Assembly (NCBI GenBank): GCA_017652705.1
Contig: JAGCAM010000079.1
Coordinates: forward strand, 11,475 to 75,474
Origin: Kiritimatiellia bacterium
Lineage (GTDB): Bacteria; Verrucomicrobiota; Kiritimatiellia; RFP12; UBA1067
Direction of reading: 5' to 3'
DNA: 64,000 nt
The notes below the pieces were generated by a model. The model was not told where the DNA came from and did not search any database. It saw nothing but the letters and a program-made list of their open reading frames with translations. Below, in pieces: positions 11,061-35,232 of this stretch. The first letter of the stretch is position 1, and every line of letters starts with the position of its first letter. The translations under genes were made by a program, and so were the position numbers.

Positions 11061-11081
11061 ATGCCGGTTTCCCGGAGCTGT

Positions 11082-11834: not shown

Positions 11835-14302
11835 TTAGCCTTCCCCGCCCGGCGGAAAACCAGGGCGGCTCCGTCTTTGGCGAGTCTGGCGCGCATCCGC
11901 GCCCCGGCTTTGCCGGAGAGCACAAGATCGGCGAGAGGATCTTCCACGAAATCCTGAACCACCCTGCGCAGCGGGCGGGCGCCGAGCGCAGGATCGTAGC
12001 CTTTTTCAATCAGAAAATCCGCCGCCTTGTCGTCGAGAGTAAACGTGATGTGCGCGTTTTTAAGCCGCGCCTGGAGTCCGGCGAGTTCAAGTTCGAGTAT
12101 GCGCCGCAGATCGGCCTTTTCGAGTTTTTTGAAGACGACTGTCTCGTCGAACCGGTTGAGGAGCTCCGGTCGGAAAGCCCGCTTCGCCTCGCCGAGCATT
12201 TTTTCTTTCAGCACGTCGTAGCTCGTCTCGGCGGTGTCTTTGGCGAAACCGAGCGTGTGGCCTTCGCGGGCGAAATCGAACCCGAGGTTGGCGGTGCAGA
12301 TCACGATGGTGTTTCTGAAGTCGATCATCCGGCCCTGGCCGTCGGTGAGGCGGCCTTCGTCGAGAATCTGCAGCAGCATGTTGCAGACGTCGGAATTAGC
12401 CTTCTCGAATTCGTCGAACAGCACGACCGAATAGGGCCGGCGGCGCACTTTCTCGGTGAGCTGGCCGCCTTCGTCGTAGCCGACGTAACCCGGGGGGGCG
12501 CCGACGAGGCGCGAGGAGGAGTATTTTTCCTGGAATTCAGACATGTCCAGCGCGATCAGCGCCTTGGAGTCGCCGTAAACGCGTTCGGCGAGCATCTTGG
12601 CGAGATGGGTTTTGCCGACGCCGGTCGGTCCGAGAAAGAGAAATGATCCGATCGGGCGCTTCGGGTCGGACATCAGCGCGCGGCTGCGGCGGAGCGCCCT
12701 GGCGATGGCGTTAACCGCCGGTGTCTGCCCGACCACCACTTCACCGAGGGCTTTTTCCATGCCGAGCAGTTTTTCGGCGGTGGTGGCGCACATCTTCTCG
12801 ACGGGCACGCCGCTCATCGAAGAAACGGTTTCTGCGACGTCCTTCTCGCCGATCTCGATGACCTCTTCGGCGTGGGTCTCCTTCCATTTGGCGAGCGCCG
12901 CTTCGAATTCTTCGCAGGCGCTGCGGATGGCGTCGCGGTACTGCGCCGCGGAATCGAAGTCGCCTTTCGCGACGACCTGTTCCTTACGGCCGCGCAAGGT
13001 GTCGATGCGGGCCTGCATTTCGGTGAGTTTCTTCGGACGGGCGCTTGCGCCGGCTCGCAGTCTGGCGCCGGTTTCATCCACCGCGTCGATCGCCTTGTCG
13101 GGCAGCTGGCGCGCCGGCAGGTAGCGCGCGGTGAGCTCCACCGCCGCGCGGATCGCCTGCGGCGTGTAGGCGACGGAATGGTATTCGGAATACTTGGGGG
13201 CGATGCCTTCGATGATGCCGACGGCTTCGACGACGGTCGGTTCGTCGACCTGCACCGACTGGAACCGGCGTTCCAGCGCGGCGTCGCGCTCTATGGACTT
13301 GTGGTATTCTTTGAGGGTGGTGGCGCCGACGCACTGCAGTTCGCCGCGAGCGAGCGCGGGTTTGAGGATGTTCGCCGCGTCCATGGCGCCCTCGGCGCCG
13401 CCGGCGCCGACCATGGTGTGTATTTCGTCGAGGAAAAGGATGATGTTGGCGCTGCGCTTCGTTTCGTCGATTATCTTCTTGAGCCGCTCTTCGAACTGGC
13501 CGCGGTACTGGGTGCCGGCCACGACGCGGGCCATGTCGAGCGCCACCACGCGCTTGTTCTGCATCTTTTCGGGCACCTCGCCGCGATGCACCGCCTGGGC
13601 GAGACCCTCGACGACGGCGGTTTTGCCGACGCCGGCCTCGCCGATCAGCACGGCGTTGTTTTTGGTGCGGCGCGAGAGAATCTGAATTATGCGTCTGAGT
13701 TCTTTCTCCCTGCCGATCACGGGATCGAGTTTCCCCTGCCTGGCGAGTTCGGTGAGGTCGCGCCCGTAGGCGTTGACCGTCGGCGTTTTCTGGGCCTTGC
13801 CGTTCGCCCCGGGGCGGGCGTCGCGCACATCTTCATCGGCCTCGCGGCGCTCCGGCGTTTCGTCGCCGCGGCGGTCGCCGCCCTGGCTGCCGGCGGCGAT
13901 GAACTTGTCGGCGGTGACACCGGCGTTGAACAGCAGCTGCGCGGCGGCGTTGTCCCCTTCACGGAGCATCGCGAGCACGAGATGCGCGGTGCCCACCGGT
14001 CTGCCGTCGCCGGCGTCCAGCGCGGCCATGTCGAGTATTTTTCTCGTGCGCGCCGTGAGCGGCAGCTGCCCCCGCTGCAGAATGCCCTCGGCGCCGCCGG
14101 AAATCATCGACTTCGCCGACTCGGCGAGATCTTCGAGCGCCAGCCCCAGCGTCACCAGCCGTCGGCAGGCTTCGCACTGCGGTATCGCGATTATGGAAAG
14201 AAAGATGTGCTCCGCGCCGATATGGTCGTGGCCGAACTGACGGGCGCAGCTGGACGACGCGTTCAACGCGTCGACGGCGTGCTTTGTGAAAACCACCTTC
14301 AC
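11831..14302 (-). CDS. clpC: ATP-dependent Clp protease ATP-binding subunit ClpC (class I AAA+ unfoldase).
   Basis: The 823-aa ORF has duplicated Clp_N repeats, two AAA+ modules (GEAGVGKTA and GPTGVGKT Walker A motifs) and a middle linker or UVR-like region. Confidence 0.9.
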
Positions 14303-19130: not shown

Positions 19131-22100
19131 TCATCGGCCTGCGATTTTAATCGTGCCCGGCTTCAGACCGGGTGCGGTTACAGTCAGCTCAGGGGCGTCG
19201 CCGGTGCCCCGGTAGCGCCTCACCGCCACCACCGCTTTGCCGAACCACAGCGAGTGCCCTTTCAGACTCTTGAAAGACACCATCGACCGGGGATCGCCGT
19301 TGCCTACCGCCGCGATTTCACCCGGGCCTTTCAACAAGACGTCGAACTTCGCGTCCGAGACCGGCGAACGGTTGCCTTTCGAGTCCACCGCGTCAATCTG
19401 CACGAAAACCAGATCGGAGCCTTCCGCCGAATACGGATCGCGCGTGAGCCTGATCGCCTTCGGCGCACCTGCCGTTTTCATCTTCGCTTCGCCGATTTTC
19501 TCCCCGCCGCGGTACGCCACAGCTTTCAGCTCACCAGGCCTGTACGGCACGTCGAACCAACGCAGTCTGTACTTCGCGCACACTTCATAATACCTGTTGG
19601 TGAGCGCAGGGTTGCGTTCCACCACCCCCTTGCGGCGGCGGCCGAGCGATCTGCCGTTGAGAAAAAGTTCCGCCTCGTCGCCTGATGTGTAGACGTAGAC
19701 AGGCACTTTGGTCCCTTTATGATCATTCCAGTTCCAGTGCGGAAGAATGTGCACAGTCTCCGCCTTTTTGTTCCAGTGCGAGCGGTAGAGATGCCAGCGG
19801 TCTTTTGGAATGGCGCAGATGTCGGCGGCGCCGAAGTAGGAACTGCGCGAAGTGTCGGCGACGGTGAAGCTGCGGCCGGCCGCCTTGACATAGTGGCTGC
19901 CAAACTCGCTGGCGCCGAGGAACCAGAGTGTGTAGGGGGTGGGCTCGCCAATGTAGTCGATGCCCGACCAGACAAATTCGCCGCAAACGTAGCGGTCGCG
20001 TTCCATCCGGTCGAATTCGACGTCGGCGATGTCGCCCCAGGTCGCGGCGATCTGGTCGTAGCCGTCGACTTTCCAGTTTTTGACGTCGGCGCGGAACCAT
20101 TCTCCGTGCTCGGTGTTGTTGGTGTTGGACCACCCCTCGCGTTCTTCGTTGCCGGCGAACGGAACCCGGTAGAAGCCGTAGTCGGAGAACGCGCTCGCGG
20201 ATTCCGAATAGAACAGCGGCATCGCCGGGTTGCGCGCGTGCATGTGGCGGTAGCTGCCGCCGTAGTTCCAGCCGTTGAGGTCGAGTCCGTCGAGATCGCC
20301 TTTTTCGACGGCCTTTACGTAGCAGCAGCCAATGCCGACCGGACGGGTGGAGTCTTCGGAGAGAACCGCCTTGCGGAAACGGTCGCAGCGTTCGCGGGAG
20401 GTGCCCTGGGAATATTCCTCGCAGTTGAAATAGATTTCATTGCCGAGCGACCAGGTGAACACGCAGGGATGGTTGCGGTCGCGGCGGACGAACGCCTTAA
20501 GATTGCGCTCGACGTATTCTTCGAGATTCTCCCCGGGGAGCCGCCCGGCGGTGCCGTCCCATTTGTCGAAACATTCATCCCAGACTAGGATGCCAAGTTC
20601 GTCGCAGAGATCGAGCAACTGCGGGGCGGGGCAGTTGTGCGAGGTGCGTACGGCGTTCACGCCCATGTCGCGCATGCAGAGAAGCTGGCGCTTCGCGGCG
20701 TCGCGGTCGAACGCCATGCCGAGCGGCCCCAGATCGGAATGGAGGTTGACGCCGTGAATCTGCAGGCGGCGTCCGTTGAGAAACAGTCCGTTGGTGGTTA
20801 CGGAAACGGAGCGCACCCCGTAGCGGAACTTTTCACCGGCGACGGCGTATTCGTAGAGATAAGGGTCGTCCACGTCCCAGAGACGTGGTTTGAGAATTTT
20901 GAACGAGGCGGACTTTGGACCCGAAAGTGTGCGCCAGCTGACGTTGACGGTCGCCTCGGCGGCGGATATTTTCGGAGTGGTGATCGCCACCGAGCCGGGG
21001 ATGGCGTGACCGTCGCCGCGGGTCACGAGGCGAACGCTGCGGTAAATGCCGCCGCCGGGGTACCAGCGCGATTTGTGGTCGGTCGTGTCGGCGGAGACTT
21101 CAAGACTGTTTTCACCGTTGACGACAAGAGCGGACACATCGAGGATGAAGGATGCGTAGCCGTAATCCCACCCGCCGGCGTCTTTGCCGTTGACCTTGAC
21201 TTTCGGGCGGGCCATCACTCCGTCGAATTCAAGGTAGACCCGCTCGCCCGGCTTGCCGGACTTGCGCCAGACGAAGCTGCGTCGGTAGTCGCCTTTGCCG
21301 CACCACGACAGCTTGCCGGTGGCGTAGTCGTTGGTGTGGTTGAACGGCCCCGCTATCGCCCAATCATGGGGAACCCGCACCTTTGACCAAGCGGAGGAGC
21401 CGCCGCGGCGGAATTCCCAGGCGTCACCGTCGAGAGAGATGGATCGGAACGCCGAGTCGACGTTTTCCCTGGCGAAAGCGGAGAGGTCGGGTTCACCCCA
21501 CAGCGGAACGTAATTGCGGTCTCCGAGAGTTACCGCGAAGGAGGATATCTCCTCGAAACCGAGGAGGCGGTAGTATTCCACGTCGGCGGCGACGACGTCC
21601 TTCGCCTGGCGGAAAAGTTTCACGGGAGATGTCCAGTGGGAGTACAGGGAATTGTCGAACCAGTATTCGAGAACGCGAGAACCGGCGGAGCCGAACTTTT
21701 CAATCAGGGCTTTAAGGGGCTTGGTCTCGCCGTTGTTCTGGTCGGCGAGGGGACGGCCGAGATCGCGTTTGATGGGGGCGTATTCAAGGAACACGCCTTT
21801 GACCGGTTTCACTTTCTCCGGCGGGTTGATGGCGTCGGCGTAGGCAAGGTAGCAGAGTTCGGCGTCGGGTATGAACTTGCGCAATTCGGTCACGATGGCG
21901 TTGGCGAAAATCAGCTGCTGGTCGCTGGCGGAGAATCCGCGGCATTTTTCGCATTTGCACACGCCGCCGTGCACGTCGTCAAGCCACAGACAGTAGCGGC
22001 GGTTGCCGCCGTAGAGGGCCTTGGCGAGTTCGACCGCGCGTTTCCCCGCAATGTTCATGGCTTCGGGGTTGGAGAAGCAGAAGTTCTTGTCCCTGCAGCG

Positions 22101-24380
22101 GGCGCCCTTCTCGTCCATGCGGAAATATTCGGGGTGAACGTCGAAAAGGTTGCGCGGCAGCAGCCAGCTGGCGGCGTGGATTTCATAGCCGATGTCGATG
22201 CCGAGGGCTTTGGCGCGGTCGATGAGGGCGCGGTAGCCGGGCTCTTTCAGTCTGGCGAGTGTTTTATCGAGCGCGACTTCGGCCTGGCCGCCGCCGCCGG
22301 GATGGATGGAAAGATTGTGGAGACCGAGATTCACCGCGCGGTCCACCCAGCGGTCGGAGAGTTCGTCGGTGCCGATTACGAGGGATGTTTTAAGCGCCCC
22401 GGCCGGCGGAGCGGCCGGCTTTTTTTCACGGAACCAGACCTGCATGTCGTTGCCGGGCTGGCGGTGGTCCCACGCGAAGTACGGTATCAGTTTCAGCCCG
22501 TTGGAAGCTTTGAGCGCGGGGAAGGTCTTGTCGCCGATCACGATGGTGTCGTCGGTGAAAGTGGCGTCTTCGGGAAGAACGGCGTCGTAGGCCGCGCCGC
22601 CGTTGTCGCAGCCTTCGGCGCAGTAGAGCATGGGGCCGCGTTCGACGGCGAGACGGCCGAGGTCGTCGACGACGGCGCGGTGGGCGCGGATACGCTTGAC
22701 CGGCATGGGGAAATTGACTTCGACTTTGTCGCCGGCCTTCCATTTTCTGTCGATGTCGATGTAGCCGTCTTTGCCCGGTGCGGGGTCAAGAGCGGCGCCG
22801 TTCACCGAGAGAGTGATTTCCTTGACGCTTGCGGGCACGGTCTGGGTGTACAGGTCGCCGGGCACCGGTTCACCTTTCGCCCAGCCGGGAACGCGGAGTT
22901 TTAGCGTGAACCGCTTTTCGGCGGCCGGGCTGACGGCCAGCGTTGCGCGGCCGTTCCACGGATATCCCGTGTCGCATTTGAACTTGACCCCTTCCACCTC
23001 GGCTTCGCCCTGCATGACGAGGTTCCAGAATATGTTCGCGCCGTCGGTCGCCCACGCGAAGGACGGTATCTGGGGGATGAAGCGGACGTCATTCACCGGG
23101 CAGCAGCTGCAGCCGAACCACTTCGAACGTCTGTAACCTCCTTTGCAGGCGAGCGGGTTGGGGTAGAAGTACTCGTCGCCGGTGAGTGACACGCCGGAGA
23201 GGAATCCGTTGTAGATGACCCGCTCGAGTATATCGACGTATTTGGATTCGCCGGAAAAGCGGAACATACGTTCGTTCCACAGGGCGTTGGCGATCGCGGC
23301 GCAGGTTTCCAGATAGGTCACGCGGTAGTCGTTGGGCAGCAGATAGTCGCGCTCGAACGCCTCGCCGCGGGGGGTTCCGCCGACGCCGCCGGTGAGGTGC
23401 AGCTTGCGACCAGAAACGTTGAGCCAGATGGCGGAAATCGCGTCGAGGTACGCCTTGTCGCCGGTGAGGGCGGCGACGTCGGCGACACCGCAGTACAGGT
23501 AGCCGGCGCGCACAGCGTGGCCGACCGCCTCGCGCTGGAGGACGACGGGCATGTGATCCTGGATGCCCGCGCCCGGGGCGACGATGGGGTCGACCGGTTC
23601 ACCGCCGGGGCCGACCGGCCGCCCGTCTTCGAGAGACCTGCCGCGGCCGCGCATTTCAATGAAGTGGCGCGCGAGGTTGAGATAACGCTTCCTGCCGGTC
23701 ACCCGGTAGAGCTTGGCGAGGGCGAGCTCGATTTCCTCATGGCCGGGCGCGTCTTTGAGCTGGGTCGGGTCGGGCCCGAACACGCGGCAGAAAAGATCGG
23801 CGGATTTTACGGCGACGTCGAGGAAATTGCGCTTGCCGGTGGCCCGGAACCACGCGCAGGCGGCTTCGATCATGTGCCCGTTGTTGTAAAGTTCGTGGCT
23901 GGAGCCGATGTTGGACCAGCGAACGGGGCCCATCATGCCGCTGCTGCCGCCGCCTTTGCTGAAGTGCCAGTGGCCGAGCGTTCTGGCGGTGTAGAGGTAG
24001 CCGTCTAATTCCTGCGCTTTGGCGAACTGACCGATAAGCCAGTCGCAGTATTTTTCAAGTTCGGGGTCGGGGTGGTTGGCGAGCACGTAGGCCGCCCCTT
24101 CCACCACCTTGAACACGTCGGAATCGTCGAAGGGAATTCCGCCGAACTTGCCGGCGCGGGCGGCGGCGTTGGTGAAGTTGGCGATGCGCGGCGTCTCGTT
24201 GCATTTGTCGAAACAGTTTTTGAGGGTGGAAAGACGGTTCGTCTCCAGCCGGTCGTACCAGAAGCCGCCGGTGACTCTGACCTTGGTCATGTCGGCGGAG
24301 CGGATCGGGTAGTCGTTGGCGGCGGCGGCCGCAGCGGCGGCAACGAACGCTGCGACGGCGACAGAGAGTTTCTTTTTCAT
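19131..24380 (-). CDS. Giant secreted three-module glycosidase: GH127/DUF1680-like beta-L-arabinofuranosidase-like module, then DUF4838-like module, then GH2 module.
   Basis: The 1749-aa ORF carries a signal peptide. The N-terminal roughly 650 aa contain the consecutive-Cys motif FGCSCCPVND characteristic of GH127. The middle contains GGVCKCEKCRGF and flanking DUF4838-like sequence. The C-terminal roughly 700 aa show the GH2 sugar-binding domain (VPHDWAIAGPFN, YLEFDGV), a TIM barrel (NAVRTSH, WSLGNE) and a C-terminal beta domain. Confidence 0.75.
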   Translation of the reverse strand: MKKKLSVAVAAFVAAAAAAAANDYPIRSADMTKVRVTGGFWYDRLETNRLSTLKNCFDKCNETPRIANFTNAAARAGKFGGIPFDDSDVFKVVEGAAYVLANHPDPELEKYCDWLIGQFAKAQELDGYLYTARTLGHWHFSKGGGSSGMMGPVRWSNIGSSHELYNNGHMIEAACAWFRATGKRNFLDVAVKSADLFCRVFGPDPTQLKDAPGHEEIELALAKLYRVTGRKRYLNLARHFIEMRGRGRSLEDGRPVGPGGEPVDPIVAPGAGIQDHMPVVLQREAVGHAVRAGYLYCGVADVAALTGDKAYLDAISAIWLNVSGRKLHLTGGVGGTPRGEAFERDYLLPNDYRVTYLETCAAIANALWNERMFRFSGESKYVDILERVIYNGFLSGVSLTGDEYFYPNPLACKGGYRRSKWFGCSCCPVNDVRFIPQIPSFAWATDGANIFWNLVMQGEAEVEGVKFKCDTGYPWNGRATLAVSPAAEKRFTLKLRVPGWAKGEPVPGDLYTQTVPASVKEITLSVNGAALDPAPGKDGYIDIDRKWKAGDKVEVNFPMPVKRIRAHRAVVDDLGRLAVERGPMLYCAEGCDNGGAAYDAVLPEDATFTDDTIVIGDKTFPALKASNGLKLIPYFAWDHRQPGNDMQVWFREKKPAAPPAGALKTSLVIGTDELSDRWVDRAVNLGLHNLSIHPGGGGQAEVALDKTLARLKEPGYRALIDRAKALGIDIGYEIHAASWLLPRNLFDVHPEYFRMDEKGARCRDKNFCFSNPEAMNIAGKRAVELAKALYGGNRRYCLWLDDVHGGVCKCEKCRGFSASDQQLIFANAIVTELRKFIPDAELCYLAYADAINPPEKVKPVKGVFLEYAPIKRDLGRPLADQNNGETKPLKALIEKFGSAGSRVLEYWFDNSLYSHWTSPVKLFRQAKDVVAADVEYYRLLGFEEISSFAVTLGDRNYVPLWGEPDLSAFARENVDSAFRSISLDGDAWEFRRGGSSAWSKVRVPHDWAIAGPFNHTNDYATGKLSWCGKGDYRRSFVWRKSGKPGERVYLEFDGVMARPKVKVNGKDAGGWDYGYASFILDVSALVVNGENSLEVSADTTDHKSRWYPGGGIYRSVRLVTRGDGHAIPGSVAITTPKISAAEATVNVSWRTLSGPKSASFKILKPRLWDVDDPYLYEYAVAGEKFRYGVRSVSVTTNGLFLNGRRLQIHGVNLHSDLGPLGMAFDRDAAKRQLLCMRDMGVNAVRTSHNCPAPQLLDLCDELGILVWDECFDKWDGTAGRLPGENLEEYVERNLKAFVRRDRNHPCVFTWSLGNEIYFNCEEYSQGTSRERCDRFRKAVLSEDSTRPVGIGCCYVKAVEKGDLDGLDLNGWNYGGSYRHMHARNPAMPLFYSESASAFSDYGFYRVPFAGNEEREGWSNTNNTEHGEWFRADVKNWKVDGYDQIAATWGDIADVEFDRMERDRYVCGEFVWSGIDYIGEPTPYTLWFLGASEFGSHYVKAAGRSFTVADTSRSSYFGAADICAIPKDRWHLYRSHWNKKAETVHILPHWNWNDHKGTKVPVYVYTSGDEAELFLNGRSLGRRRKGVVERNPALTNRYYEVCAKYRLRWFDVPYRPGELKAVAYRGGEKIGEAKMKTAGAPKAIRLTRDPYSAEGSDLVFVQIDAVDSKGNRSPVSDAKFDVLLKGPGEIAAVGNGDPRSMVSFKSLKGHSLWFGKAVVAVRRYRGTGDAPELTVTAPGLKPGTIKIAGR

Positions 24381-24410
24381 TTCAGCGGTCTCCTTTTAAG
24401 GGTGAAGCTT

Positions 24411-24902
24411 TCACAGATGTTTGATGTTGATTTTGCCTGTGGCGAGTCCCGGGGCCGATGCCGTCAGGGTGGCGGGGCCTTTGCCGGTGCGCCGAAGGAT
24501 TACCAGGGCCTTGCCGTGGAAAAGACGGTTGCCGGCGACGTCCTTGACCGAGTCGTAATCGCGTGGGTCGCCGTTGCCTACCGCTTCTATGACGGCGTCG
24601 CCGCGGACCGCGAAACCGACTCGGTCGCCGGCGTCGGGAACGCGCGTACCGGCTGCGTCCGCTTTCGCGGCGGTTTTCACGCTGGCCACGCCGATCTTCC
24701 TGCCCCTGAGATAGCGGACCGCCCTGAGTTCGCCCGGTTCCCACCGCACGTCAAACCAGCGCAAACGGTAGCGGCCCATAATCTTGTAATACGGGTTGTC
24801 GCGGCCTTTCCCGTTGAACTTGGCGACGTCGCCGCAGTCGCTGTGCAGCGGATAGTCGAGGCGGAGCTTCCGTTTCATTGGCCTTATTTTGTTTTGTCGC
24901 AC
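24411..24902 (-). pseudogene. 3' remnant of a GH2 gene (C-terminal beta-sandwich domain only).
   Basis: RYRLRWFDVRWEPGELRAVRY...AVGNGDPRDYDSVKDVAGNRLFHGKALVILRRTGKGPATLTASAPGL aligns with the last roughly 150 aa of the GH2 module of the giant protein at 19131..24380. The upstream GH2 domains are absent. Confidence 0.5.
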
Positions 24903-24912
24903 TGAATGGCGG

Positions 24913-27669
24913 TCATTGCTCGACGAATTTCAGTACGCCGAAGGCGTTGAGATCGCTGTTGAAATTGCCGAACCTGTTGTAAAGCCGCGAAAGTTCCCAC
25001 ACCGAACCGGGGGTGCGCTTCGACTTGTCTTTGAGCCAGGCGTCGGCGATTCTCAGCCGCGCGATGTTGCCGTTCCAGTGGATGCCGCCCTGCGTGGTCG
25101 GTATTTTCGCGTCGGCGAAGAAACCGAGGTCGCTGTACGGTATGTAGATTTCGACCGACCAGGAGTCTTTGTTGATTTTCGCCCCGCTCTTCAGCCCCTT
25201 CGGTTCCCACTTCTTGGTCTGAACCCGCAACTGGTTGACGGCGTCGATCCAGAGTTTGAAATAGACGCCTTCAAGCTCGCCGGTGGGGTCGACGAAAATT
25301 TCAAGACAGTCGTTGCCCCACCAGTCGCCGGCCGGGTGCGAAGTCTGCAGGCGGTCGGGGGTCTTCTCCATGCAGGTGATGCCGAACACCACGCCTTGCG
25401 AAGTCCATACCGCCTGCACGTAAGTCGGATATTTCGCCACGGTGTTGGTGCGGCTGCCGCTGCCGTCGATACCCGCGAGCGCGCAGGAGAGCGGCTCGGC
25501 GAGCTTCCAGCACGGGTCGGAGAGGTCGCCGTCGATTTTCGGAAGTTCGGCGGCCTTGCGCATGTGCAGGTCGGGGAAGGCCTTGTTGTTGGCGTACTCC
25601 CAGCTTTCCCTGAAAAACCGCTCGAAGGGTTTGGCGTAGTAGGCGAGACGGTTCGAGGCGGCCGCATCGTCGGCGAGAGCCCTGAACGACTCTTTGATTA
25701 TGCGTTCCATCTCCTCCACCTCGGCGCGCGGGTAGCTGATGCCGAAAACGTTTTTGCTGGTGACGCTCGGCCGCTTCCACTGCCGTGCCCACCCTTTCTC
25801 CTGCATGTCGATAAGTTTGCGCATCGGCGCGGCGGCCTTGCCGAACATCCGACTGGCGAATTCGTCGTAGACGTCTTTCGCCTCGAAGCCGGGGTTCCAC
25901 ATCGCCCGCACCCAGACGTAGGCGGAGAGCCCGAGCCGGTCGACCGGATACCCCCCGTTCAGGAAAGATCCGCAGATCACGCCCTTCATCCTGCGGTAGA
26001 ATTCAACAGCGGTGCCGCCGAAAACGTAAGGGGCGCAAGTCCGGTCGGCCGGCCAGCAGATGTAGTGCCAGTTCTGCACGGGGTTGCCGGTCGCCTTCGC
26101 CCATTGGCGCATGAGCTCCTCCTCGTGTCTGCGGGCTGATTCCTGGGCGAGCAGCGCGAGGCCCGGCATGGTGCACAGAAACGCGTCCACGTTGCCTTCG
26201 GCCGTGAGATCGAGACCTTTGGGCACGTCGCAGGTGTTGATGTAGGGAAGTATGGAAATGCGCCAGTCGGGATATTTCCGCTTCATCCATTTGGCGAGTT
26301 CCTTGGTGAAATACCCCCAGATTATCGGCGAAGCGTCGCCCGTGGGCGCGGCTGACTTGTCCACGAGTTTTTTGCAGAAATCGCAGTGGCAGACGACGGC
26401 GGCGTCGTACTGCGAAACGGTTACGGTTTTGCGCTGCACGTCGACGGGGTCGCCCATAAAGCCGCGGCGTTTGCCCTCGACCGTCAGGTTGATGTGCTCC
26501 TTGTAGGTCTGCAGCGTGCGGGGGTTGCCGTAACAGAGCATGGCGGTGCGGGCGCGTTCGCCGTTTTCGGACAGGGCGAAGATTTCCGGTCGCCCCGTCC
26601 AGCGGCTCGGCTTGTAACCGAGATTGGGGTCGACGTGCCAGTAGCTCGGGGTGTGGACCCGGTGCGATGACTGGTGGGCGTCGCCGAATTTCCAGCCGCG
26701 GTGACCCGCTGCGAATTCGGTGCGGAATTCATAGACCGGTTTGTCCGACCAGTTGAACCGTGGCAGGGCGAGACCTTCCGTTTTGATAACGAGTTCGCCG
26801 ATCTTGCGGTCGGGGTAGTACTGGCGTACGCCGAGTATCCGTTCGGCGAAGTCGTAGACGGCGTAGCCGGAGGCGGTCGCATGCGCGCCGATGAGGAAAA
26901 CGTCCCCTCCTTTGGTGAGACAGCGGAAGGCGTGTGCGCCGACGCCCCACCGGGTGTCGGGGGTGCCGGGGCGGGTGACGCCGGCTTCGCGGGCGGCGAG
27001 GGTGTCGCCGATGTAGATCGCGCCGCCGCCGGTGTAGGCGGTGTTGGTGCCGAGATGGAGAACCGGCGGCTTGGCGCCGGTCATCTTTTCGATTATTTCA
27101 GCGAGCCACACCGCTTCGCCGCGCGCTTCGGCCGCCACGATCGGCATGCGGGCGACGCCGTCGGCGACGACCACGACCGGTTCCCCGCGAGGGGCCGAGA
27201 ACGCGGTGAGCGGGGTCAGGTCTTTGGCGCGCGGATTGCCGGGCGCGAGCTGCGCTCTGGATCCGTCCTCCGCGGTGACGAAACTCCCTTTCCGTTCCGC
27301 GGCGGCGGCCGAAGTCTTGGTGAAGTAGTTGGTGGCGAGCGCGGTACGCGACGTCCGGCGGTACGCCTCGAAGAGAACTGAATACTCACCGGCCGGCAGA
27401 TCTTCGACATGCAGCGAAAGCGCATTGCGCCCGACCCGCAAGGGAACCGACTGCGTGCGGAGCATCCTGCCGGACGCGTCGCGCAGCGTCATTTTCACGC
27501 TGTCGGCGGTGCAGACCGGAACCTTTGCCTCGAAGGCGACGTAGACGTCGTCCTTGCCGAGCGTCTGCCGGTCGCCCGAGGCGCCGGTAAATCCGACGGC
27601 CGGCGCCGCGGCGGCGGCGGCGGAAAGGATTGCCGCGGCGGCGAAAAGAACCTGTGCTGTCTTTGTCAT
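24913..27669 (-). CDS. Secreted DUF4838-like protein with a C-terminal CBM9-like (DOMON-type) carbohydrate-binding domain.
   Basis: A signal peptide is present. VVCHCDFCKK and the flanking region are paralogous to the 7992, 19131 and 30401 proteins. The C-terminal motif PKIDGDLSDPCWKLAEP...YFKL is CBM9-like. Confidence 0.6.
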   Translation of the reverse strand: MTKTAQVLFAAAAILSAAAAAAPAVGFTGASGDRQTLGKDDVYVAFEAKVPVCTADSVKMTLRDASGRMLRTQSVPLRVGRNALSLHVEDLPAGEYSVLFEAYRRTSRTALATNYFTKTSAAAAERKGSFVTAEDGSRAQLAPGNPRAKDLTPLTAFSAPRGEPVVVVADGVARMPIVAAEARGEAVWLAEIIEKMTGAKPPVLHLGTNTAYTGGGAIYIGDTLAAREAGVTRPGTPDTRWGVGAHAFRCLTKGGDVFLIGAHATASGYAVYDFAERILGVRQYYPDRKIGELVIKTEGLALPRFNWSDKPVYEFRTEFAAGHRGWKFGDAHQSSHRVHTPSYWHVDPNLGYKPSRWTGRPEIFALSENGERARTAMLCYGNPRTLQTYKEHINLTVEGKRRGFMGDPVDVQRKTVTVSQYDAAVVCHCDFCKKLVDKSAAPTGDASPIIWGYFTKELAKWMKRKYPDWRISILPYINTCDVPKGLDLTAEGNVDAFLCTMPGLALLAQESARRHEEELMRQWAKATGNPVQNWHYICWPADRTCAPYVFGGTAVEFYRRMKGVICGSFLNGGYPVDRLGLSAYVWVRAMWNPGFEAKDVYDEFASRMFGKAAAPMRKLIDMQEKGWARQWKRPSVTSKNVFGISYPRAEVEEMERIIKESFRALADDAAASNRLAYYAKPFERFFRESWEYANNKAFPDLHMRKAAELPKIDGDLSDPCWKLAEPLSCALAGIDGSGSRTNTVAKYPTYVQAVWTSQGVVFGITCMEKTPDRLQTSHPAGDWWGNDCLEIFVDPTGELEGVYFKLWIDAVNQLRVQTKKWEPKGLKSGAKINKDSWSVEIYIPYSDLGFFADAKIPTTQGGIHWNGNIARLRIADAWLKDKSKRTPGSVWELSRLYNRFGNFNSDLNAFGVLKFVEQ

Positions 27670-27683
27670 TTTTCCGCGCCATT

Positions 27684-29771
27684 TCAGAACTTCACGGAAG
27701 TCGAGAGCGTATCGACGAAACCGGGCTGTCCGCCGCCGACGTAAACCGCGGTTTCACCCGAGGGCACCGTCGCTTTGCCGTCTTCGCCGAAAACCGCGAA
27801 CTGCTCGTTCAGCAGCGTGAAGGTGACGTTCCGCGACGCACCGGGGGCGATGCGAACGCGCGTGAACCCCTCAAGATGGTGCAGACGGCGGTCGCCGGCC
27901 GCGGCGGGGGCTTTCAGATAGAGCTGCACGACTTCGTCGCCGGCGAGCTTGCCGGTGTTTTTCACGTTGACGGTGATCTCTGCGCCGGACGCCGTCTTTT
28001 TGGCCCGGATGTCGGAGTAGGCGAAAGTCGTATAGGAAAGTCCGTAACCGAACGGATACGCCGGCTTTTTCGTGGCGTAGCGGTAGGTGCGCCCGACGAG
28101 GGTGTAGTCGGCGAACGCGGGAAGGTCGTCGTAGGATTTCGGGTAGGTGATGGGGAGCCTCCCGGCCGGGTTGTTTTTGCCGAATATCGTGCGGGCGACT
28201 GCGCGCCCCCCCTGTTCACCGGGATACCATGCGAGAATGACCGCGTCGGAATTTCTGACGACCGGCTCGAGATCGAACGGGCTGCCGCCGAAGATGACCG
28301 AGACTACGCACTTGCAGCTCTTGCGGTAGCCCTCAAGCAGTTTCAACTGGTTCTGGGGCAGCGAATAGGAGGTGCGGTCGCCGCCGGAATTGTTGACGCT
28401 GCACCCCTCCTCGCCTTCGTCTTCGGCGGTGATGCCGAGACAGACTATCGCGATGTCGCTGCCGTGGGCGCCTTCGGGCACGCCGATTACGCGAACCCCC
28501 GGGCCTGCCTCTTCGACCACCCCGGAGAAGACTGTTGACGGACGCGCAGCGTAGCCGCAGTAGTTGCCGATAAGAGCCACTTCGTCCATCGCGCGCGGAC
28601 CGACCACGCCCACGCAGACGGCTTTCTTGGGGTCGAACGGCAGTGCGCCGTTGTTGGAAATCAGCACGAGAGATTTCTCGGCGGCCTCAAGCGCGAGATC
28701 GCGGTTGGCCTCGGTCGCGACGTCCTTTTCGCCGAGGTGATCCCACGGCGTGGAACCGTTTCTGTCGAACTGGCCGAGCAGAACGCGGGTGTTGAGAAGC
28801 TGCACCAGCGGTCGCTTGAGCTCGTCGCCGGTGACCTTGCCCTCTTTAATGGCGTCGCGGAGGCAGGCGTAGGTGCCTTCCGAACAAAGGTCGAGACCGG
28901 CCGCGATCGCCGCTTTGCACGCCGCCACCCTGTCGGCGGTGAAATGATGTCCGGTGTGGATGTCGGCGACCGCGCCGACATCGCTGACGATATGGCCTTT
29001 GAAGCCCCATTCGCCGCGGAGGATGTCCGTGAGCAGTTCGCGGTTGGCGCAGCACGGCACGCCGTTGAGGGCGCTGTAGGCGCCCATGAACGCCTCGACT
29101 TTCGCGTGCATCGCCAACGTGCGGAACGCCGGCAGATAGTATTCGCGGAGATCCCGCGCCGAAACCTTGGCGTTGAACCCGTGGCGCAGACGCTCGGGCC
29201 CCGAATGCACCGCGAAGTGTTTGGCGCACGCCGCGGTTTTCAGATACTTTTTGTCGTACCCCTGCAGCCCGCGGACGTACGCTCCGCCCATTACGCCGGA
29301 GAGGTAGGGGTCTTCGCCGAACGTCTCCTGGCCGCGCCCCCAGCGCGGATCGCGGAACATGTTGACGTTGGGGCTCCACAGGGTAAGCCCTTTGTAGATT
29401 TCACGCTGGTCGCGTTCGCGGAAGAGGTTGTACTTGGCGCGCGTCTCGGTCGAGACGACGTCGCCGACGCGCTCCTGCAAGCCGGAGTCGAACGAGGCGG
29501 CCATGCCCATCGACTGCGGGAACACCGTGGCGAGACCGGCGCGGGCGATGCCGTGCAGCGCCTCGTTCCACCAGTGGTAGCGGGGAATCCCGAGCCTGTC
29601 GACGGCGGGGGAGTCCATCATCAGCAGATCGACGCGTTCCTCTGGGGAGAGTTGCTCGACCATCGTCCGCGCGCGCAGCTCGCATTCGGAACGGCGGTAG
29701 TCGGAAGGTATGGCTGCGGCGGATGCCGCGGCGAACGCGGCGATGGAACCAGCGGCTATTTTCATGTTCAT
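27684..29771 (-). CDS. Glycoside hydrolase family 3 (beta-glucosidase/beta-xylosidase, BglX-like), secreted.
   Basis: The 695-aa ORF has a signal peptide. GH3 N-domain motifs include WNEALHG and KHFAVHSGPE. The catalytic region reads GFKGHIVSDVGAV. A C-terminal alpha/beta domain and FnIII-like domain follow. Confidence 0.9.
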   Translation of the reverse strand: MNMKIAAGSIAAFAAASAAAIPSDYRRSECELRARTMVEQLSPEERVDLLMMDSPAVDRLGIPRYHWWNEALHGIARAGLATVFPQSMGMAASFDSGLQERVGDVVSTETRAKYNLFRERDQREIYKGLTLWSPNVNMFRDPRWGRGQETFGEDPYLSGVMGGAYVRGLQGYDKKYLKTAACAKHFAVHSGPERLRHGFNAKVSARDLREYYLPAFRTLAMHAKVEAFMGAYSALNGVPCCANRELLTDILRGEWGFKGHIVSDVGAVADIHTGHHFTADRVAACKAAIAAGLDLCSEGTYACLRDAIKEGKVTGDELKRPLVQLLNTRVLLGQFDRNGSTPWDHLGEKDVATEANRDLALEAAEKSLVLISNNGALPFDPKKAVCVGVVGPRAMDEVALIGNYCGYAARPSTVFSGVVEEAGPGVRVIGVPEGAHGSDIAIVCLGITAEDEGEEGCSVNNSGGDRTSYSLPQNQLKLLEGYRKSCKCVVSVIFGGSPFDLEPVVRNSDAVILAWYPGEQGGRAVARTIFGKNNPAGRLPITYPKSYDDLPAFADYTLVGRTYRYATKKPAYPFGYGLSYTTFAYSDIRAKKTASGAEITVNVKNTGKLAGDEVVQLYLKAPAAAGDRRLHHLEGFTRVRIAPGASRNVTFTLLNEQFAVFGEDGKATVPSGETAVYVGGGQPGFVDTLSTSVKF

Positions 29772-30397
29772 TTGACTTCTCCGTGTGGGATTTTAACCTT
29801 TGCGGGTTGAAAAATCATTTGAAGGCCACTTTCGCCGGCGCAAGGCCGTCGGAACTCGCGGTCAGTTCGGCAGCCCCTTCCGCACTCGATGCCCGCCCCC
29901 GGGTACCAGCGCGAAGCGTGGTTGTAGGTCGAACACGCGACGACGACGTGGTTCGACTTTGCCGCCAGCAGCCCGGTGACGTCCATCCGGAAACTCATGT
30001 AGCCGTAGTCCCAGCCGCCGGCCAGCCGCCAGTTGACGTAGCCTTTCGCGTCGGCCATGACGCCGTCGAATTCAAGGTAGGCTTTGTCGCCGTTCTCGAG
30101 CAGCGCCCAGTCCGCCGCCGGAATGTCGTCCACCCACCTGCGGTACATGTAGGCCCCCTTCCACGGCAGCTTGCCGGTGACCGGCCCGGCCAGGGGGTTG
30201 AACGGGCCTTCGATCGCGGCGTCGTGAGGCACTTCGACCTTTCGCCATCCTTCGGTCGGATCCGCCGCCTGGATGTTGCGCAGGTGGTCGCCGTTCAAGT
30301 CGCGGATGTACAGCCATCCGCCGTCGAGCGGAACCGTGCCCGCACCGGCGGCGAAGACGCCGCCGAGAACGGCGAGCGGAAAAATGATCTTTCGCAT
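29768..30397 (-). pseudogene. Truncated or frameshifted GH2 N-terminal sugar-binding domain fragment with its own signal peptide.
   Basis: VPHDAAIEGPFN...YLEFDGVMADAKGYVN...GGWDYGYMSF...RWYPGAGI matches the GH2 N-domain of the giant protein. The frame then degenerates (ECGRGCRTDREF...) and stops 3 bp before the GH3 start. Confidence 0.5.
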
Positions 30398-30400
30398 GCC

Positions 30401-33400
30401 TCAGTTCTCGCGGAAGATGAACTTTGAAAAAGCTCCCGGATCGCTGTTGTAGCCGTTGCCGCGCGTATGCAGGCGGGACATCTCGGTGGTGTGCGGGGTT
30501 CGCTTGTTGAGCGGACGGATCGTCTTGTCGCCGCGGCGGAGGCGGATGAAGTTCCCCGTCCAGGACATGCCCCCTGAAGTCGTCGGGTGCACCGCGTCTT
30601 TGTAGAGCGCGATCATCGGCTTGTACGGCACGTAAAGTTCGATGCTCCACGACTTCTCGTTCTTCGCGATCGCGCAGCGGACGCCTTCCGGCCCCTGGGC
30701 CTTCTTGAAGCCGTCGTACCACTCGAACTTGCCGCTCGCGTTGATAATCACGCGGCCGAAAGCGCCGTAGTCGCCGCCGAGGTCGATCAGCGCTTCGACG
30801 CAGTCGTTGACCCAGTAGTTGCCGGTGGGGCCGTCGTTGCAGAGGTTCGCCATGTCGCTTTCGCGGCAGTCCATGCCGAACGTGACTGCGGTCGGCGTCC
30901 ACACCGCGCGTATCGACGTGCCCTCTTTCGGCGTCGTGCCCTCCTTGCGCGCGCCGGTGAACTCCTGCGCTTCGGCCAGCTTCCAGCAAGCGTCGTCGAG
31001 CTTGCCGTCGATCACGGGGTCCTGCGACACTTTCTGCATCATGAGCGGCGCAAAGGCGCTGCCGGCGGCGTATTCGGCCGATTCCTTGAAAAACTGCGTG
31101 AAGCCGCCTTTGTAGTAGGCGATGCGCTTCATGAGCAGCTCGTCGCCGGCGCAGAGCTGCTCTGCCTCGGCGAAGAGCCCCTCCATCCTCAGAACTTCCG
31201 CCCGCGGATAGGAAATCGTGTAGATGTTCCGGTTGTTGACGCGGGAGACCTTCCACTGCCGCTCCCAGCCTGTCTCCTGCAGGCGGACGATCTCGCGCAG
31301 CTGTTTCGCCGCGGGCCCGAACATGCGGTCGGCGAAGGTGTCGTAGACGGAGTCGATGTTCAGCTCGGGGTTCCACAGCAGGCGCATCCAGCAGTAGGCC
31401 GAAAGCACCAGCCGGTCTACCGGGTAACGACCGTTGAGAAAGCTGCCCGCTGTGATTTCGCGCGTGTCGCGGTAGTGGCGCTGGGCCGTCTTGGCGAAGA
31501 TAAACGGCGCCTGGCAGGTCTCCGCCGGCCAGCAGATGTAGTGCCAGTTCTGCACCGGCCGACCCGTCACCCGCGCCCAGTCGCGGATGAGTTGCTCCTG
31601 GAACTCCTTCACCGGCTTCTCCTTCAGCATGGCGAGACCGGGCATCGTGCAGAGAAACGCCTCGACGTTGCCCTCTTCGACGAAGTCCACCCCGTCGGGT
31701 ATGTCGGTCGTGTTGTGGTACGGCAGAATGACTATTTTCCAGCCGGGCAGTTCCTTCTTCGCCCACTTGGCGAGTTCTTTCGTGAAGTAGCCCCAGAGCA
31801 CGTTCGAAAAGCTCACGCGGCTTTCGGCGATGTTCTCCTGCGGGTGTCTGGCGAGTATCGCCTTGCAGTATTTGCAGTTGCAGAAAACGGCGATGTCCCA
31901 CTGCGAAACGGTGATGCACTTCGCCAGCGGTGCGGTGATGTCGCCGCGTGGCGAACCGCTGGCGATTTCGGCGAGGATGCGCTCCTTGTACGTTTCGAGG
32001 GTGCGGGGGTTGCCGTAGCAGAGCAGCGGCATCGTCGCCCGTTTGCCGTCGTCGGTCAGCGCGAAGATTTCCGGCCGCGTGAACATGAAGTTGAGGTTGG
32101 TGTTCCTGTTCCACGCCCCGGGCGCATGCACGTGGTGCTCTCCGCAGTGGCTGTCGCCGTTTTTCCACACCCGGCACCATTCGTTGCCTTCGTACGGCCA
32201 GAGGTCGCGCTTGGCGAAAACCGGCTTGTCGGAGTAACTGAACGCCGGCAGCGAAAGCCCGTATGTTTTCACCACAGTGCGGCCGCCGTTCTTGACGTCC
32301 CAGTATTCGCGCACGGCGAGGGCGCGCTCCGCGAAGTCGGTCGCCGCGTAATCGCACCGCGCGCCGCAAAGGTAGACCGACCCGTCTTTCACGCACACCT
32401 TGAACCCGTGCGCGTCGACGCCCCAGCGCTCGCGCTGGTAGGTGGCGAGCCCCGCGCGGCGCGTCGCCGCTACATCGCCTATGTAGATCGCCGGGGCGTT
32501 GGTGACCGGTCTGCCGCCGCACTCGCGCACGATCCTGAGCCTGGCGCCGGTCATGTCCTCGATCACCGAGGCGATGAACTGCGCGGCGAACTGCCCGTCA
32601 CGCGAATCTTCGCAGACGATGTCCATCGCCGGTATCGAGCCGAGAGCGACGGTCGCGCCGGCGCCGCCCAGCCAGCGGAAATCTTTCACCGGCGTCAGAT
32701 CGCGCGCGTTCACGTTCATCGGGGCGCGCTGCGCATGATAAACCCTGCGGCGGACGTCGTCGACGCGCACCACCGCCCCGCCGCGCTTGCCCGATTCCTC
32801 CGCGGCGGCCATGAGCGCGAAGATCTCGTCGGTTTCCTCGGAAGGGAAAGGCTTCACCCCGGTTTTGAAAAACTTGAGTATCTCCTCGAGCATCGGCGCG
32901 TAACCCTCGTATCCCCCGAGATCGACCACCCCCTTGTCGGCGGTGAACGCCTGGCCGGAGTAATTCCACATCCCGGGCCCGCGCATCATGCGCAGACCGC
33001 CGAATCTGCCGTCGCGCCATCTGACGGCCACGAAATCGTTGCTTTCGTTCGAAAAGCAGCTGACCGATTCGGCACCGACCCCCATCACCGCCACGAGCGG
33101 CTCGAAACCGTGGATGCCGTACCAGGTGAACCGCGAGTGGGTGCGCTCAAGCGGCGAGGGAGCAGCGTAGTTGACGCCGCGCACCACGCCCAGCTCCCCT
33201 TTGCGCGCCGCCTGCACCTTCGAAGTCCACCGCAGCGCGGAACAGCTGAAGAAATTGGCGTTGACCCGGCGCGCCTCGTCGAATATCCGGGTGGCGGACT
33301 GGTAGTCGCTGGCGAGGGGCTTGTCGATGAACACCCGCTTGCCGCTCGCGAAAACCTCCCGCGCCTGGGCCAGATGCTCGCGGCCGTCCTGCGTTTCAAG

Positions 33401-33721
33401 CAGCACCACGTCGCACTTCGCCAGCACGTCTTTGACGCTCGGCTCCATTTCAACGCCCATCTCCTTCATCTGCCCGATGTATTTCGGGTAGTTGTTCGTC
33501 ACCGCGGGTATCGTGCGCGAGCCGTACTTGTACGCGGCCACGACCCGGAAATCTTTGAATATCTCGCGGTCGCGCTTGACGTTGATGTGCCTGGTGAACT
33601 CGGTGGCGTGCGACGTGTCGACGCCGATGACGCCGATCTTGATTTCGCCGGCCGTCGGGGCGGCCGCGGCCGCCGCCGCCGCGAGAAGTGCGATTGAGCG
33701 AAGTGGTCTGTCCATTTTCAT
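30401..33721 (-). CDS. Fusion protein: Gfo/Idh/MocA oxidoreductase, then DUF4838-like domain, then CBM9-like domain. It has a Sec-type signal peptide.
   Basis: After the signal peptide (MKMDRPLRSIALLAAAAAAAAPTAG) comes a Rossmann Gfo/Idh/MocA domain (IKIGVIGVDTSHATEF...). The middle section contains AVFCNCKYCKAILARHPQ and WGYFTKELAKWAKKELPGW, which are nearly identical to the 24913 protein. The C-terminal PVIDGKLDDACWKLAE motif is CBM9-like. The ORF track's start at 33757 adds 12 residues. Confidence 0.7.
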   Translation of the reverse strand: MKMDRPLRSIALLAAAAAAAAPTAGEIKIGVIGVDTSHATEFTRHINVKRDREIFKDFRVVAAYKYGSRTIPAVTNNYPKYIGQMKEMGVEMEPSVKDVLAKCDVVLLETQDGREHLAQAREVFASGKRVFIDKPLASDYQSATRIFDEARRVNANFFSCSALRWTSKVQAARKGELGVVRGVNYAAPSPLERTHSRFTWYGIHGFEPLVAVMGVGAESVSCFSNESNDFVAVRWRDGRFGGLRMMRGPGMWNYSGQAFTADKGVVDLGGYEGYAPMLEEILKFFKTGVKPFPSEETDEIFALMAAAEESGKRGGAVVRVDDVRRRVYHAQRAPMNVNARDLTPVKDFRWLGGAGATVALGSIPAMDIVCEDSRDGQFAAQFIASVIEDMTGARLRIVRECGGRPVTNAPAIYIGDVAATRRAGLATYQRERWGVDAHGFKVCVKDGSVYLCGARCDYAATDFAERALAVREYWDVKNGGRTVVKTYGLSLPAFSYSDKPVFAKRDLWPYEGNEWCRVWKNGDSHCGEHHVHAPGAWNRNTNLNFMFTRPEIFALTDDGKRATMPLLCYGNPRTLETYKERILAEIASGSPRGDITAPLAKCITVSQWDIAVFCNCKYCKAILARHPQENIAESRVSFSNVLWGYFTKELAKWAKKELPGWKIVILPYHNTTDIPDGVDFVEEGNVEAFLCTMPGLAMLKEKPVKEFQEQLIRDWARVTGRPVQNWHYICWPAETCQAPFIFAKTAQRHYRDTREITAGSFLNGRYPVDRLVLSAYCWMRLLWNPELNIDSVYDTFADRMFGPAAKQLREIVRLQETGWERQWKVSRVNNRNIYTISYPRAEVLRMEGLFAEAEQLCAGDELLMKRIAYYKGGFTQFFKESAEYAAGSAFAPLMMQKVSQDPVIDGKLDDACWKLAEAQEFTGARKEGTTPKEGTSIRAVWTPTAVTFGMDCRESDMANLCNDGPTGNYWVNDCVEALIDLGGDYGAFGRVIINASGKFEWYDGFKKAQGPEGVRCAIAKNEKSWSIELYVPYKPMIALYKDAVHPTTSGGMSWTGNFIRLRRGDKTIRPLNKRTPHTTEMSRLHTRGNGYNSDPGAFSKFIFREN

Positions 33722-33876: not shown

Positions 33877-35232
33877 TCAGCCGCGGAACCGCACCGGCGG
33901 CTCCCAGCCTTTCGCGTATTCGTCGCGGCACCACAGCTTCGCGGCAGCCCCTTTGTTCTGCAGCGCACCCGTCTTCGCGTCGAGCCGGATGGTTTCGCCG
34001 GTCGACCACGCCAAATTGGCGGTGTGCGCCATCTGCGTCGTCGCGAGCGACTTGTCCGGACCAGCGAAGCATAGTTTCGGATCCTTCGCGCGGATCGCGT
34101 CCACCCAGTTGCTGACGTGGTCGGTGTCCATGTAGCTCGCGCCGGTCGTGGACTGTATCCACTCGAACGCGCTCTGATCAAGCCACTTGCCGACGAGTTT
34201 GCTCTTGTTGTCGTACTGGAAAACCCCGTCCTGCGGGTGGAAAAGCACCGAACCGCCGGGGCCGAAGAACATGCACCCCGTGCCGATGTCGTGCGGCGCC
34301 TTCACGTTCGTCGACGAGAGGCATTCGAAAGTGATGATGCGCCCGTCGGCGAACTGGTAGCTCGCGTGCTGGGTGTCGGGCCATTCCCAGTCGTCGCCGG
34401 AGTGGAAGCACCTCGCGCCGAGCGAAACCGTCTTCACCGGGTAGTCCACGCCCATGCCCCAGCGGGCGATGTCGAGAAAGTGCGGCGAGTTGTTGCCCAT
34501 CTCGCCGGTGCCCCAGCGGCGGAACCAGTGCCAGTTGTAATGCACGTAATTGTCGTGGAAGTCCGTGCGCGGCGCCGGCCCCTGCCACATTTCCCAGTCC
34601 AGCCACTTCGGCGGGGCGACCTTCTTGCCGACGCCGATCGTCCCGCGGCGGGAGGTGTACCAGCAGCGTGCGTACTTTACATCGCCGATGAGCTCCTTGA
34701 GCCGCGGTATCATCTCGCGGTACACGCGCGAAGCGCGGCGCTGGCAGCCGATCTGCAGCACCTGGCCTGTCTTCTTCCACGTGTCGAGCAGAATCTGCCC
34801 CTCCTCGCCGTTGTAGCTGCACGGCTTCTCGACGTACACCGCCTTGCCCGCGAGCATGGCCATCCACGCCAGCGGCGCGTGCCAGTGGTCGGGCGTCTCG
34901 CAGATGATCCCGTCGATGTCTTTCATCTCGAGGATCTTGCGGATGTCCGTCGTCTGATAGGGCTTCTTGCCGGTGCGCTTCTCGACTTCCGCCACCGCCG
35001 CCGGCATCCCCTCCGGCCGCGTGTCGACGTCGCAGATCGCCGCCACTTCGACGCCGGGCGTCACCGACGCCGCGCGCATCACCCAAATGCCGCGGCACGC
35101 GCCGCGGCAGCCCATGACCGCCACCCGGACCCGGTTCGACGGAGCGCCCGCCCCGATGACGTTCTTCGCCGACGCGATGAAAAACGCGCCCGCCCCGCCT
35201 TTGATGAAGTTCCTTCTGTCCGTCTTGCTCAT
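33877..35232 (-). CDS. Tat-exported Gfo/Idh/MocA oxidoreductase, a candidate glycoside 3-dehydrogenase.
   Basis: A twin-arginine motif MSKTDRRNFIKGGAGAF is followed by a Rossmann domain. The ORF is 451 aa. Confidence 0.85.
   Translation of the reverse strand: MSKTDRRNFIKGGAGAFFIASAKNVIGAGAPSNRVRVAVMGCRGACRGIWVMRAASVTPGVEVAAICDVDTRPEGMPAAVAEVEKRTGKKPYQTTDIRKILEMKDIDGIICETPDHWHAPLAWMAMLAGKAVYVEKPCSYNGEEGQILLDTWKKTGQVLQIGCQRRASRVYREMIPRLKELIGDVKYARCWYTSRRGTIGVGKKVAPPKWLDWEMWQGPAPRTDFHDNYVHYNWHWFRRWGTGEMGNNSPHFLDIARWGMGVDYPVKTVSLGARCFHSGDDWEWPDTQHASYQFADGRIITFECLSSTNVKAPHDIGTGCMFFGPGGSVLFHPQDGVFQYDNKSKLVGKWLDQSAFEWIQSTTGASYMDTDHVSNWVDAIRAKDPKLCFAGPDKSLATTQMAHTANLAWSTGETIRLDAKTGALQNKGAAAKLWCRDEYAKGWEPPVRFRG

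Follow-up and report, generated by a model that had tools for sequence, protein, structure and literature searches.

Two short open reading frames in a Kiritimatiellia glycosidase gene row are remnants of GH2 genes, probably left by separate deletions

Introduction

Deletional bias in bacterial genome decay forms pseudogenes. Here we describe two short open reading frames (ORFs), at 29768..30397 and 24411..24902, in a 64,000-nt stretch of DNA from a Kiritimatiellia bacterium (GenBank assembly GCA_017652705.1, contig JAGCAM010000079.1, positions 11,475 to 75,474 of the forward strand; hereafter the window, whose numbering is used throughout). Both lie in a row of glycan-degradation genes, and both, as far as function can be read from sequence, are remnants of GH2 genes that no longer work. 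With a probability of roughly 0.62, we favor the view that they are what independent deletions have left of two different GH2 genes. The phenomenon itself is ordinary deletional pseudogenisation. Like deletion pseudogenes in general, the relics are recognisable homologues of known genes, with large deletions, a shifted frame, intact neighbors, the label 'hypothetical protein' and no conserved orthologue, and they depart from the typical case in no essential. The local twist would be that two paralogous GH2s were hit, while a third, fused into a giant protein encoded next to them, is intact.

The relics come from the same clade as the beta-galactosidase-type GH2s that carry DUF4982 and C5 domains (nearest solved structures 5t98/5t99, 9bey, 4ypj and 7cwd). 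Unlike those enzymes, they contain no part of the TIM barrel or of the immunoglobulin-like domain. A second family represented at the locus is DUF4838 (PF16126), the catalytic domain in GH163 (BT1035) and GH185 (Sp_0475) (PMC10570127). By Pfam match, PF16126 is also carried by a 918-aa and a 1104-aa protein encoded beside the relics and by the middle part of the giant protein.

Results

The 209-aa ORF upstream, relic 1, begins with a signal-peptide-like sequence, MRKIIFPLAVLGGVFAAGAG, and continues into the N-terminal sugar-binding domain of a GH2. The first-pass annotation, a reading of the letters and ORFs of the window, had identified it in these terms; translation, Pfam and a GH2 profile agree with that assignment and show in addition that the domain is truncated. 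Positions in GH2 are given on the scale of this profile, which has 829 positions and was built from 95 full-length database GH2s. Relic 1 matches it over positions 34-180 with 137 bits; its match to Pfam Glyco_hydro_2_N (PF02837) covers positions 32-142 of 169 with 26.1 bits, below the cut-off of 28. The N-domain motifs PHD.AIEGPF, LEFDGVMA, WDYGY and RWYPGAGI are all present, 17 of the 18 GH2 columns conserved at 90% or more are kept, and there are no internal stops. GH2 homology then breaks off immediately after RWYPGAGI, at the atc codon at 29890-29888, where intact GH2s go on with YRxVxL. Ending at profile position 180, before that strand, relic 1 does not contain a complete PF02837 jelly-roll. 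The final 38 aa of the annotated ORF are an out-of-frame read. Its TGA (29770-29768) overlaps the GH3 ATG (29771-29769) as ATGA, and does not, as first described, stop 3 bp short of GH3.

Beyond the break the sequence resumes as GH2, one base out of frame. Three-frame translation of the 75 nt that follow gives SSAEGAAELTASSDGLAPAKVAFK and a stop, a peptide that corresponds to the extreme C-terminus, or final strand, of the C5 domain in GH2s. Comparable ends are GPATLTASAPGLATGKINIKHL with a stop in the downstream relic, DAPELTVTAPGLKPGTIKIAGR with a stop in the giant protein and GGALTASADGLAPDRCLF in the database GH2 P0379. We built a C5 profile from 84 database GH2s, leaving the window sequences out, and searched it against all six-frame stop-to-stop peptides of the window. 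The top two peptides were those of the giant (96 bits) and of the downstream relic (78 bits); third, at 11.8 bits (E = 0.014), was the tail, followed by the next peptide at 7.2 bits, and the maximum among reversed-sequence decoys comprising 2.16 M residues was 9.3 bits. The tail aligned to C5 profile positions 86-109/112, the very end of the domain, and with the terminal columns of 88 GH2s. Its stop sits 43 nt ahead of the GH3 start, and the spacer between them contains GGAG. Because the score lies above the decoys, and because the peptide coincides exactly with the break, is on the right strand and has a stop and then a normal spacer behind it, we take the 24 residues to be a real GH2 C-terminus.

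Relic 1 retains GH2 profile positions 1-180 and approximately 786-809, and about 605 positions (about 1.8 kb) are gone, with the frame altered at a junction at about 29888/29889. The frameshift originally proposed for this ORF is correct insofar as the frame changes; it is not a simple frameshift, but rather the junction of a deletion (about 1.8 kb), with the GH2 C-terminus on its far side.

The downstream ORF, relic 2, had been described as the last 150 or so residues of a GH2, and this description stands. It matches Pfam Glyco_hydro2_C5 with 60.9 bits (E = 1.2e-16), as well as the end of DUF4982, and the GH2 profile over positions 658-701 and 728-809 with 92 bits. Pairwise alignments to P0361 and P0379 place the 5′ limit of GH2 homology at about 24880. 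The first 640 or so profile positions are absent, and tblastn with the giant's GH2 module detected no N-terminal GH2 domain in relic 2. A further, in-frame deletion has taken out about 26 positions (702-727), with its junction near 24660. All 10 of the columns conserved at 90% or more are kept, and internal stops are again absent. The peptide MKRKLRL at 24878 was considered as the original start and signal peptide of this gene and rejected; it aligns with an internal GH2 motif, GRRRKLKAD..YPL.

Comparison of the two relics shows that their ends coincide. Of the C-terminal DUF4982 and C5 domains, relic 2 has C5 and the end of DUF4982, minus the 26 or so deleted positions, and relic 1 has the terminal 24 residues in a shifted frame, so that both contain GH2 profile positions from about 786 to 809. 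The two fragments had been taken as complementary parts of one gene. Since both loci hold the same terminal C5 strand, they are not complementary and two or more GH2 genes are involved; on this evidence, at least two GH2 genes probably existed beside the giant's module. The two tails are well diverged at the DNA level, and neither can therefore be a recent copy of the other. In its pattern of similarity to other GH2s, the relic 1 tail correlates weakly with both the N fragment (relic 1) and the C fragment (relic 2), with rho values of 0.27 and 0.37, respectively.

Only one GH2 in the window is complete, the module within the giant protein (about 19131-21500), which has retained 90 of the 90 columns conserved in GH2s. 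Used as a tblastn query, it matched the N fragment with 49% identity over 124 aa (E = 4.8e-26) and the C fragment with 40.5% identity over 153 aa (E = 9.6e-23), and found no GH2 sequence in the window besides the giant and these two fragments. The initial statement that both fragments most resemble this module holds within the window. Overall it does not: the database GH2s P0375 (55% to the N fragment) and P0361 (43% to the C fragment) are closer, and among 96 GH2s the giant's module ranks second in identity to the N fragment and fifth to the C fragment. At the DNA level, no long or high-identity repeats in the window tie the relics to the giant's GH2; a single 60-nt patch of 78% identity covers the conserved LEFDGVMA motif. 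This one patch, together with protein identities of 40-50%, leaves the suggestion of recent shuffling among paralogues unsupported.

Neither tblastn nor a six-frame search with the GH2 profile found a match to the immunoglobulin-like domain (PF00703) or the (beta/alpha)8 barrel (PF02836) in any frame of 24381-30400 outside the fragments, in agreement with the early observation that the central barrel is missing. With neither an immunoglobulin-like domain nor a TIM barrel to supply the catalytic glutamates, the relics cannot be glycosidases.

Both ORFs form singleton clusters at 90% identity among approximately 15 billion proteins. In a word-indexed search, the closest relative of the N fragment had 48% identity; the hits of this search were all of 361 aa or less, and a full-length orthologue may have escaped it. 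An intact, syntenic GH2 in related genomes had been proposed as a check, and searches with the GH3, the DUF4838-CBM9 protein, the giant and the N fragment found none. Orthologues of the GH3 (P0122, P0123, P0133 and P0141; 69-78% identity) occur in unrelated contexts in metagenomes with no adjoining relic or GH2; the best hits to the 918-aa DUF4838-CBM9 protein in GTDB species genomes are 33-44% identical with no GH2 alongside; and a metagenome scan with the N fragment returned 80 loci at 41-57% identity, none of them syntenic.

Short proteins that match only GH2_N are found in the databases, and 10 of the 14 that we fetched turn into Arg/Pro/Ser-rich out-of-frame sequence. Five of those ten switch frame right after RWYPGAGIYR, and the remaining 4 of the 14 simply stop. 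Several of these short proteins are encoded on long contigs (for example P0064, 81 kb, and P0102, 139 kb), and many entries are labeled partial. Broken GH2 calls, whether due to sequencing errors or to pseudogenes, appear to be common in metagenome assemblies.

The sequence across both relics is identical in three assemblies: the NCBI contig of the metagenome-assembled genome (MAG; 101 kb), an ENA scaffold (54.6 kb) and Logan contigs. Over 22,088 nt the ENA scaffold differs from the window at one position, 19683 (A versus C), in the C-terminal part of the giant's GH2, and two Logan contigs are 100% identical to the window across the junctions. The features of the locus are collected in Table 1.

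Table 1. Relics, spacers and adjoining genes at the GH2 locus, listed in the direction of the minus strand (window coordinates).
Feature	Position	Strand	Length	Content or remark	Support
GFO_IDH-like	33877-35232	-	451 aa	free paralogue just upstream of the 1104-aa gene	
GFO_IDH_MocA + DUF4838 + CBM9-like, intact	30401..33715	-	1104 aa		Pfam; ENA scaffold gene call
209-aa ORF (relic 1, annotated extent)	29768..30397	-	209 aa		
GH2 relic 1, 5′ part	29888..30397	-		start codon, signal peptide, GH2 N-terminal sugar-binding domain up to RWYPGAGI	
GH2 relic 1, 3′ tail	29815..29889	-	24 codons + TGA	SSAEGAAELTASSDGLAPAKVAFK, TGA at 29817-29815; frame shifted one base	
Former GH2-1/GH3 intergenic spacer	29772..29814	-	43 nt	contains GGAG; now read through out of frame	
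GH3, intact	27684..29771	-	695 aa	GH3 N, GH3 C, Fn3-like	Pfam
DUF4838 + CBM9-like, intact	24913..27669	-	918 aa		Pfam
Spacer, AT-richer	24879..24912	-	34 nt	between the DUF4838-CBM9 stop and the called relic 2 ATG	
Relic 2 ORF	24411-24878/24902	-	155/163 aa		
GH2 relic 2	24411..24878	-	155-aa gene (ENA and NCBI)	end of DUF4982 + C5 domain, own stop	PF18565, PF16355
GH127-DUF4838-GH2 fusion (giant), intact	19131..24380	-	1749 aa		Pfam

Discussion

The homologies, the junctions, the intact genes around the relics and the fact that each relic has a GH2 C-terminus are direct observations, and they allow a history of the locus to be proposed. The older gene order would have been DUF4838-CBM9, GH2-1, GH3, DUF4838-CBM9, GH2-2, giant. 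In GH2-1, a single deletion may have removed about 605 internal codons, joining codon 171 or thereabouts to the last 24 codons in another frame. Such a frame-changing deletion accounts for the form of the annotated ORF, which runs from the N-domain into 38 junk residues and terminates on the start codon of the GH3. GH2-2 would have lost its first 640 or so codons and, at a later time, about 26 more in frame; this small third deletion shows that deletion is ongoing at the locus. The deletions are probably recent, with the conserved residues still in place: retention of 17/18 and 10/10 conserved columns without internal stops indicates that the decay is young. Their loss could have been tolerated if the giant's intact GH2 module, which belongs to the same clade, made the two genes redundant. 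The relics are presumably still co-transcribed with the row, without yielding a working enzyme.

That the two ORFs are broken GH2 remnants was the central claim of the first-pass annotation, and it is confirmed by the truncated domains, the 38 out-of-frame residues, the singleton status of both ORFs and the 48% identity of the nearest N-fragment relative. Both combine homology to a functional family with disabling lesions, and the truncated forms were not seen as conserved genes in the collections searched, which contain no close relative of this organism.

Several observations weigh against two independent deletions. The tail on which the second gene depends is just 24 residues long. The collections searched contained no close relative that has an intact GH2 in synteny, and the ancestral order is deduced rather than observed; the adjacency of DUF4838-CBM9 and GH2 that it assumes is absent from the other genomes examined. 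All three assemblies derive from one sample and run (SRR12529136). Finally, the similarities of the N and C fragments to the 96 GH2s correlate with a rho of 0.41. Real genes have a median of 0.46 and random chimeras one of 0.12; the observed rho falls inside the real-gene range and exceeds that of most random chimeras. This value fits one gene as well as it fits close paralogues, and a single recipient gene is possible.

A single recipient was in fact first suggested, in the form of one GH2 whose barrel had been replaced by the GH3-DUF4838 segment. As stated, this is not supported, as relic 1 has its own C-terminus and stop. The idea can be modified such that a single GH2 between the 1104-aa and giant genes had its core (positions of about 181-640) swapped for a donor segment of about 5 kb, which started within the 3′ end of a different GH2 and extended via the spacer and the GH3 to the end of DUF4838-CBM9; the tail would then be the donor's. 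The correlation just described, in which the N and C fragments act like one gene or close paralogues, speaks for a replacement of this kind, as do the overlap of the fragments through the tail alone and the very different contexts in which GH3 orthologues are found elsewhere, which imply that such genes move. It requires, however, an insertion together with a deletion, with both ends in one gene, where two plain deletions suffice, and also the coincidence that the donor brought along a paralogue of the gene immediately preceding the recipient. The junctions bear no signature of a mobile element or of a long repeat, and neither of them has a repeat that would reveal a recombination mechanism. 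We regard the modified replacement as unlikely, although it fares best among the alternatives, and prefer two plain deletions on grounds of parsimony. Somewhat more doubtful still is the proposal that a block of about 5 kb (GH2 3′ end, GH3 and DUF4838-CBM9) moved as a cassette into a paralogous GH2. Were it true, glycosidase rows of Kiritimatiellae would be rebuilt by segmental replacement between paralogous loci and, as a further step, the 209-aa ORF might have been retained since the ATGA overlap couples translation into GH3.

The ORFs could also be functional genes in their own right, the first for a lectin-like protein that is secreted and consists of the GH2 N-domain, the second for a small C5 protein; alternatively, the first may be a leader that couples translation into GH3 via ATGA. 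They are open, have plausible starts, are tightly spaced within the row and keep conserved residues, and the N fragment still has its signal peptide. Against this, Pfam positions 143-169, the last strand, are missing from the N-domain, 38 residues at its end are read out of frame, about 26 positions are gone from the C5 domain, both proteins are singletons, and most of the short GH2_N hits that we examined elsewhere are frameshifted or contig-edge fragments. A stand-alone function is accordingly very improbable. We attach slightly less weight again to an artefact, in which collapse or a strain chimera deleted the GH2 cores during assembly. The source is a MAG, with a single run behind every assembly; but three different assemblies are identical across both relics, the junctions are without repeats able to cause collapse, and relic 2 has suffered an independent small deletion as well. 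The artefact that was named at the outset as a possible refutation is not apparent in the three assemblies compared. Least credible of all is one GH2 in two complementary halves with a tail that resembles GH2 by chance: the fragment coordinates are complementary except for the tail, which is the best hit outside the annotated GH2s in the six-frame window, lies at the break and beats the decoys.

Two independent deletions, in GH2-1 and GH2-2, make one specific prediction, namely that the C-terminal 24 codons of an intact GH2-1, if one is encountered, should match AELTASSDGLAPAKVAFK followed by a stop. The significance of the locus beyond annotation is small. In the NCBI record of this Kiritimatiellae MAG both ORFs are labeled 'hypothetical protein' (J6T01_04905 and J6T01_04890; MBO7721730.1 and MBO7721727.1), and these two entries should be flagged as GH2 pseudogene fragments; the carbohydrate-active enzyme count for the MAG at this locus would be one GH2, not three. 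The locus may serve as a small, clean case in which redundant paralogues of a glycan-degradation row were lost in parallel, and as a reminder that a 'frameshifted' short ORF can conceal both ends of an internally deleted gene.

Neighboring genes

Both relics are part of a minus-strand row of closely packed, co-directional genes. The GH3 and DUF4838-CBM9 genes between them, which had been reported as intact, are so by Pfam. One DUF4838-CBM9 paralogue directly precedes each relic: the stop of the 1104-aa gene lies 3 nt ahead of the relic 1 ATG, and a gap of about 34 nt separates the 918-aa gene from relic 2. In BLASTP, the 918-aa protein is a paralogue of the C-terminal 800 or so residues of the 1104-aa protein, with 43% identity over 817 aa reaching the C-terminus, and their genes share collinear DNA repeat patches at a spacing of 5476-5491 nt. 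A scan for promoters and terminators gave no signal beyond shuffled expectation.

In the 1104-aa protein, a GFO_IDH_MocA oxidoreductase-like domain at the N-terminus is fused to a glycosidase-like DUF4838-CBM9 body. A Pirellulaceae MAG (L012) has homologues of these parts as separate stretches, about 7 kb from each other (9995-12310 and 19420-20358); the fusion may be lineage-specific. DUF4838 modules number four within the window, the fourth being in a 645-aa protein at 7992-9929 (minus strand). The short DUF4838 match of the giant (profile positions 55-224) was at one point considered a truncated domain, an idea that was dropped, as the 7992-9929 protein spans a similar 16-227.

All three modules of the 1749-aa giant look intact. 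Its GH127-DUF4838-GH2 architecture had no match among 5.8 billion proteins, where every hit covers the GH127 third alone (about 36% of the query); fusions of GH127 with GH2 that lack DUF4838 do occur, for example P0263, P0269 and P0291, of about 1536 aa. Elsewhere on the minus strand of the window are two large ORFs, one of 1672 aa (46361-51379), whose sole Pfam match is a partial CBM9 at its N-terminus, and one of 1429 aa (51420-55709) with no Pfam match.

Two features of the GH3 orthologues were also noted. P0123, which is 78% identical (L004, 19-2826), is called as a 935-aa protein; the tblastn match covers L004 127-2103, and most of the extra 240 or so residues are C-terminal. On the contigs that carry these orthologues, toxin-antitoxin pairs (ParE/PhdYeFM and PIN/MazE-like) are interspersed repeatedly among glycosidase genes, at 1355-1925, 8018-8603 and 16874-17559 of L005 and at 9245-9878 and 14341-14996 of L006.

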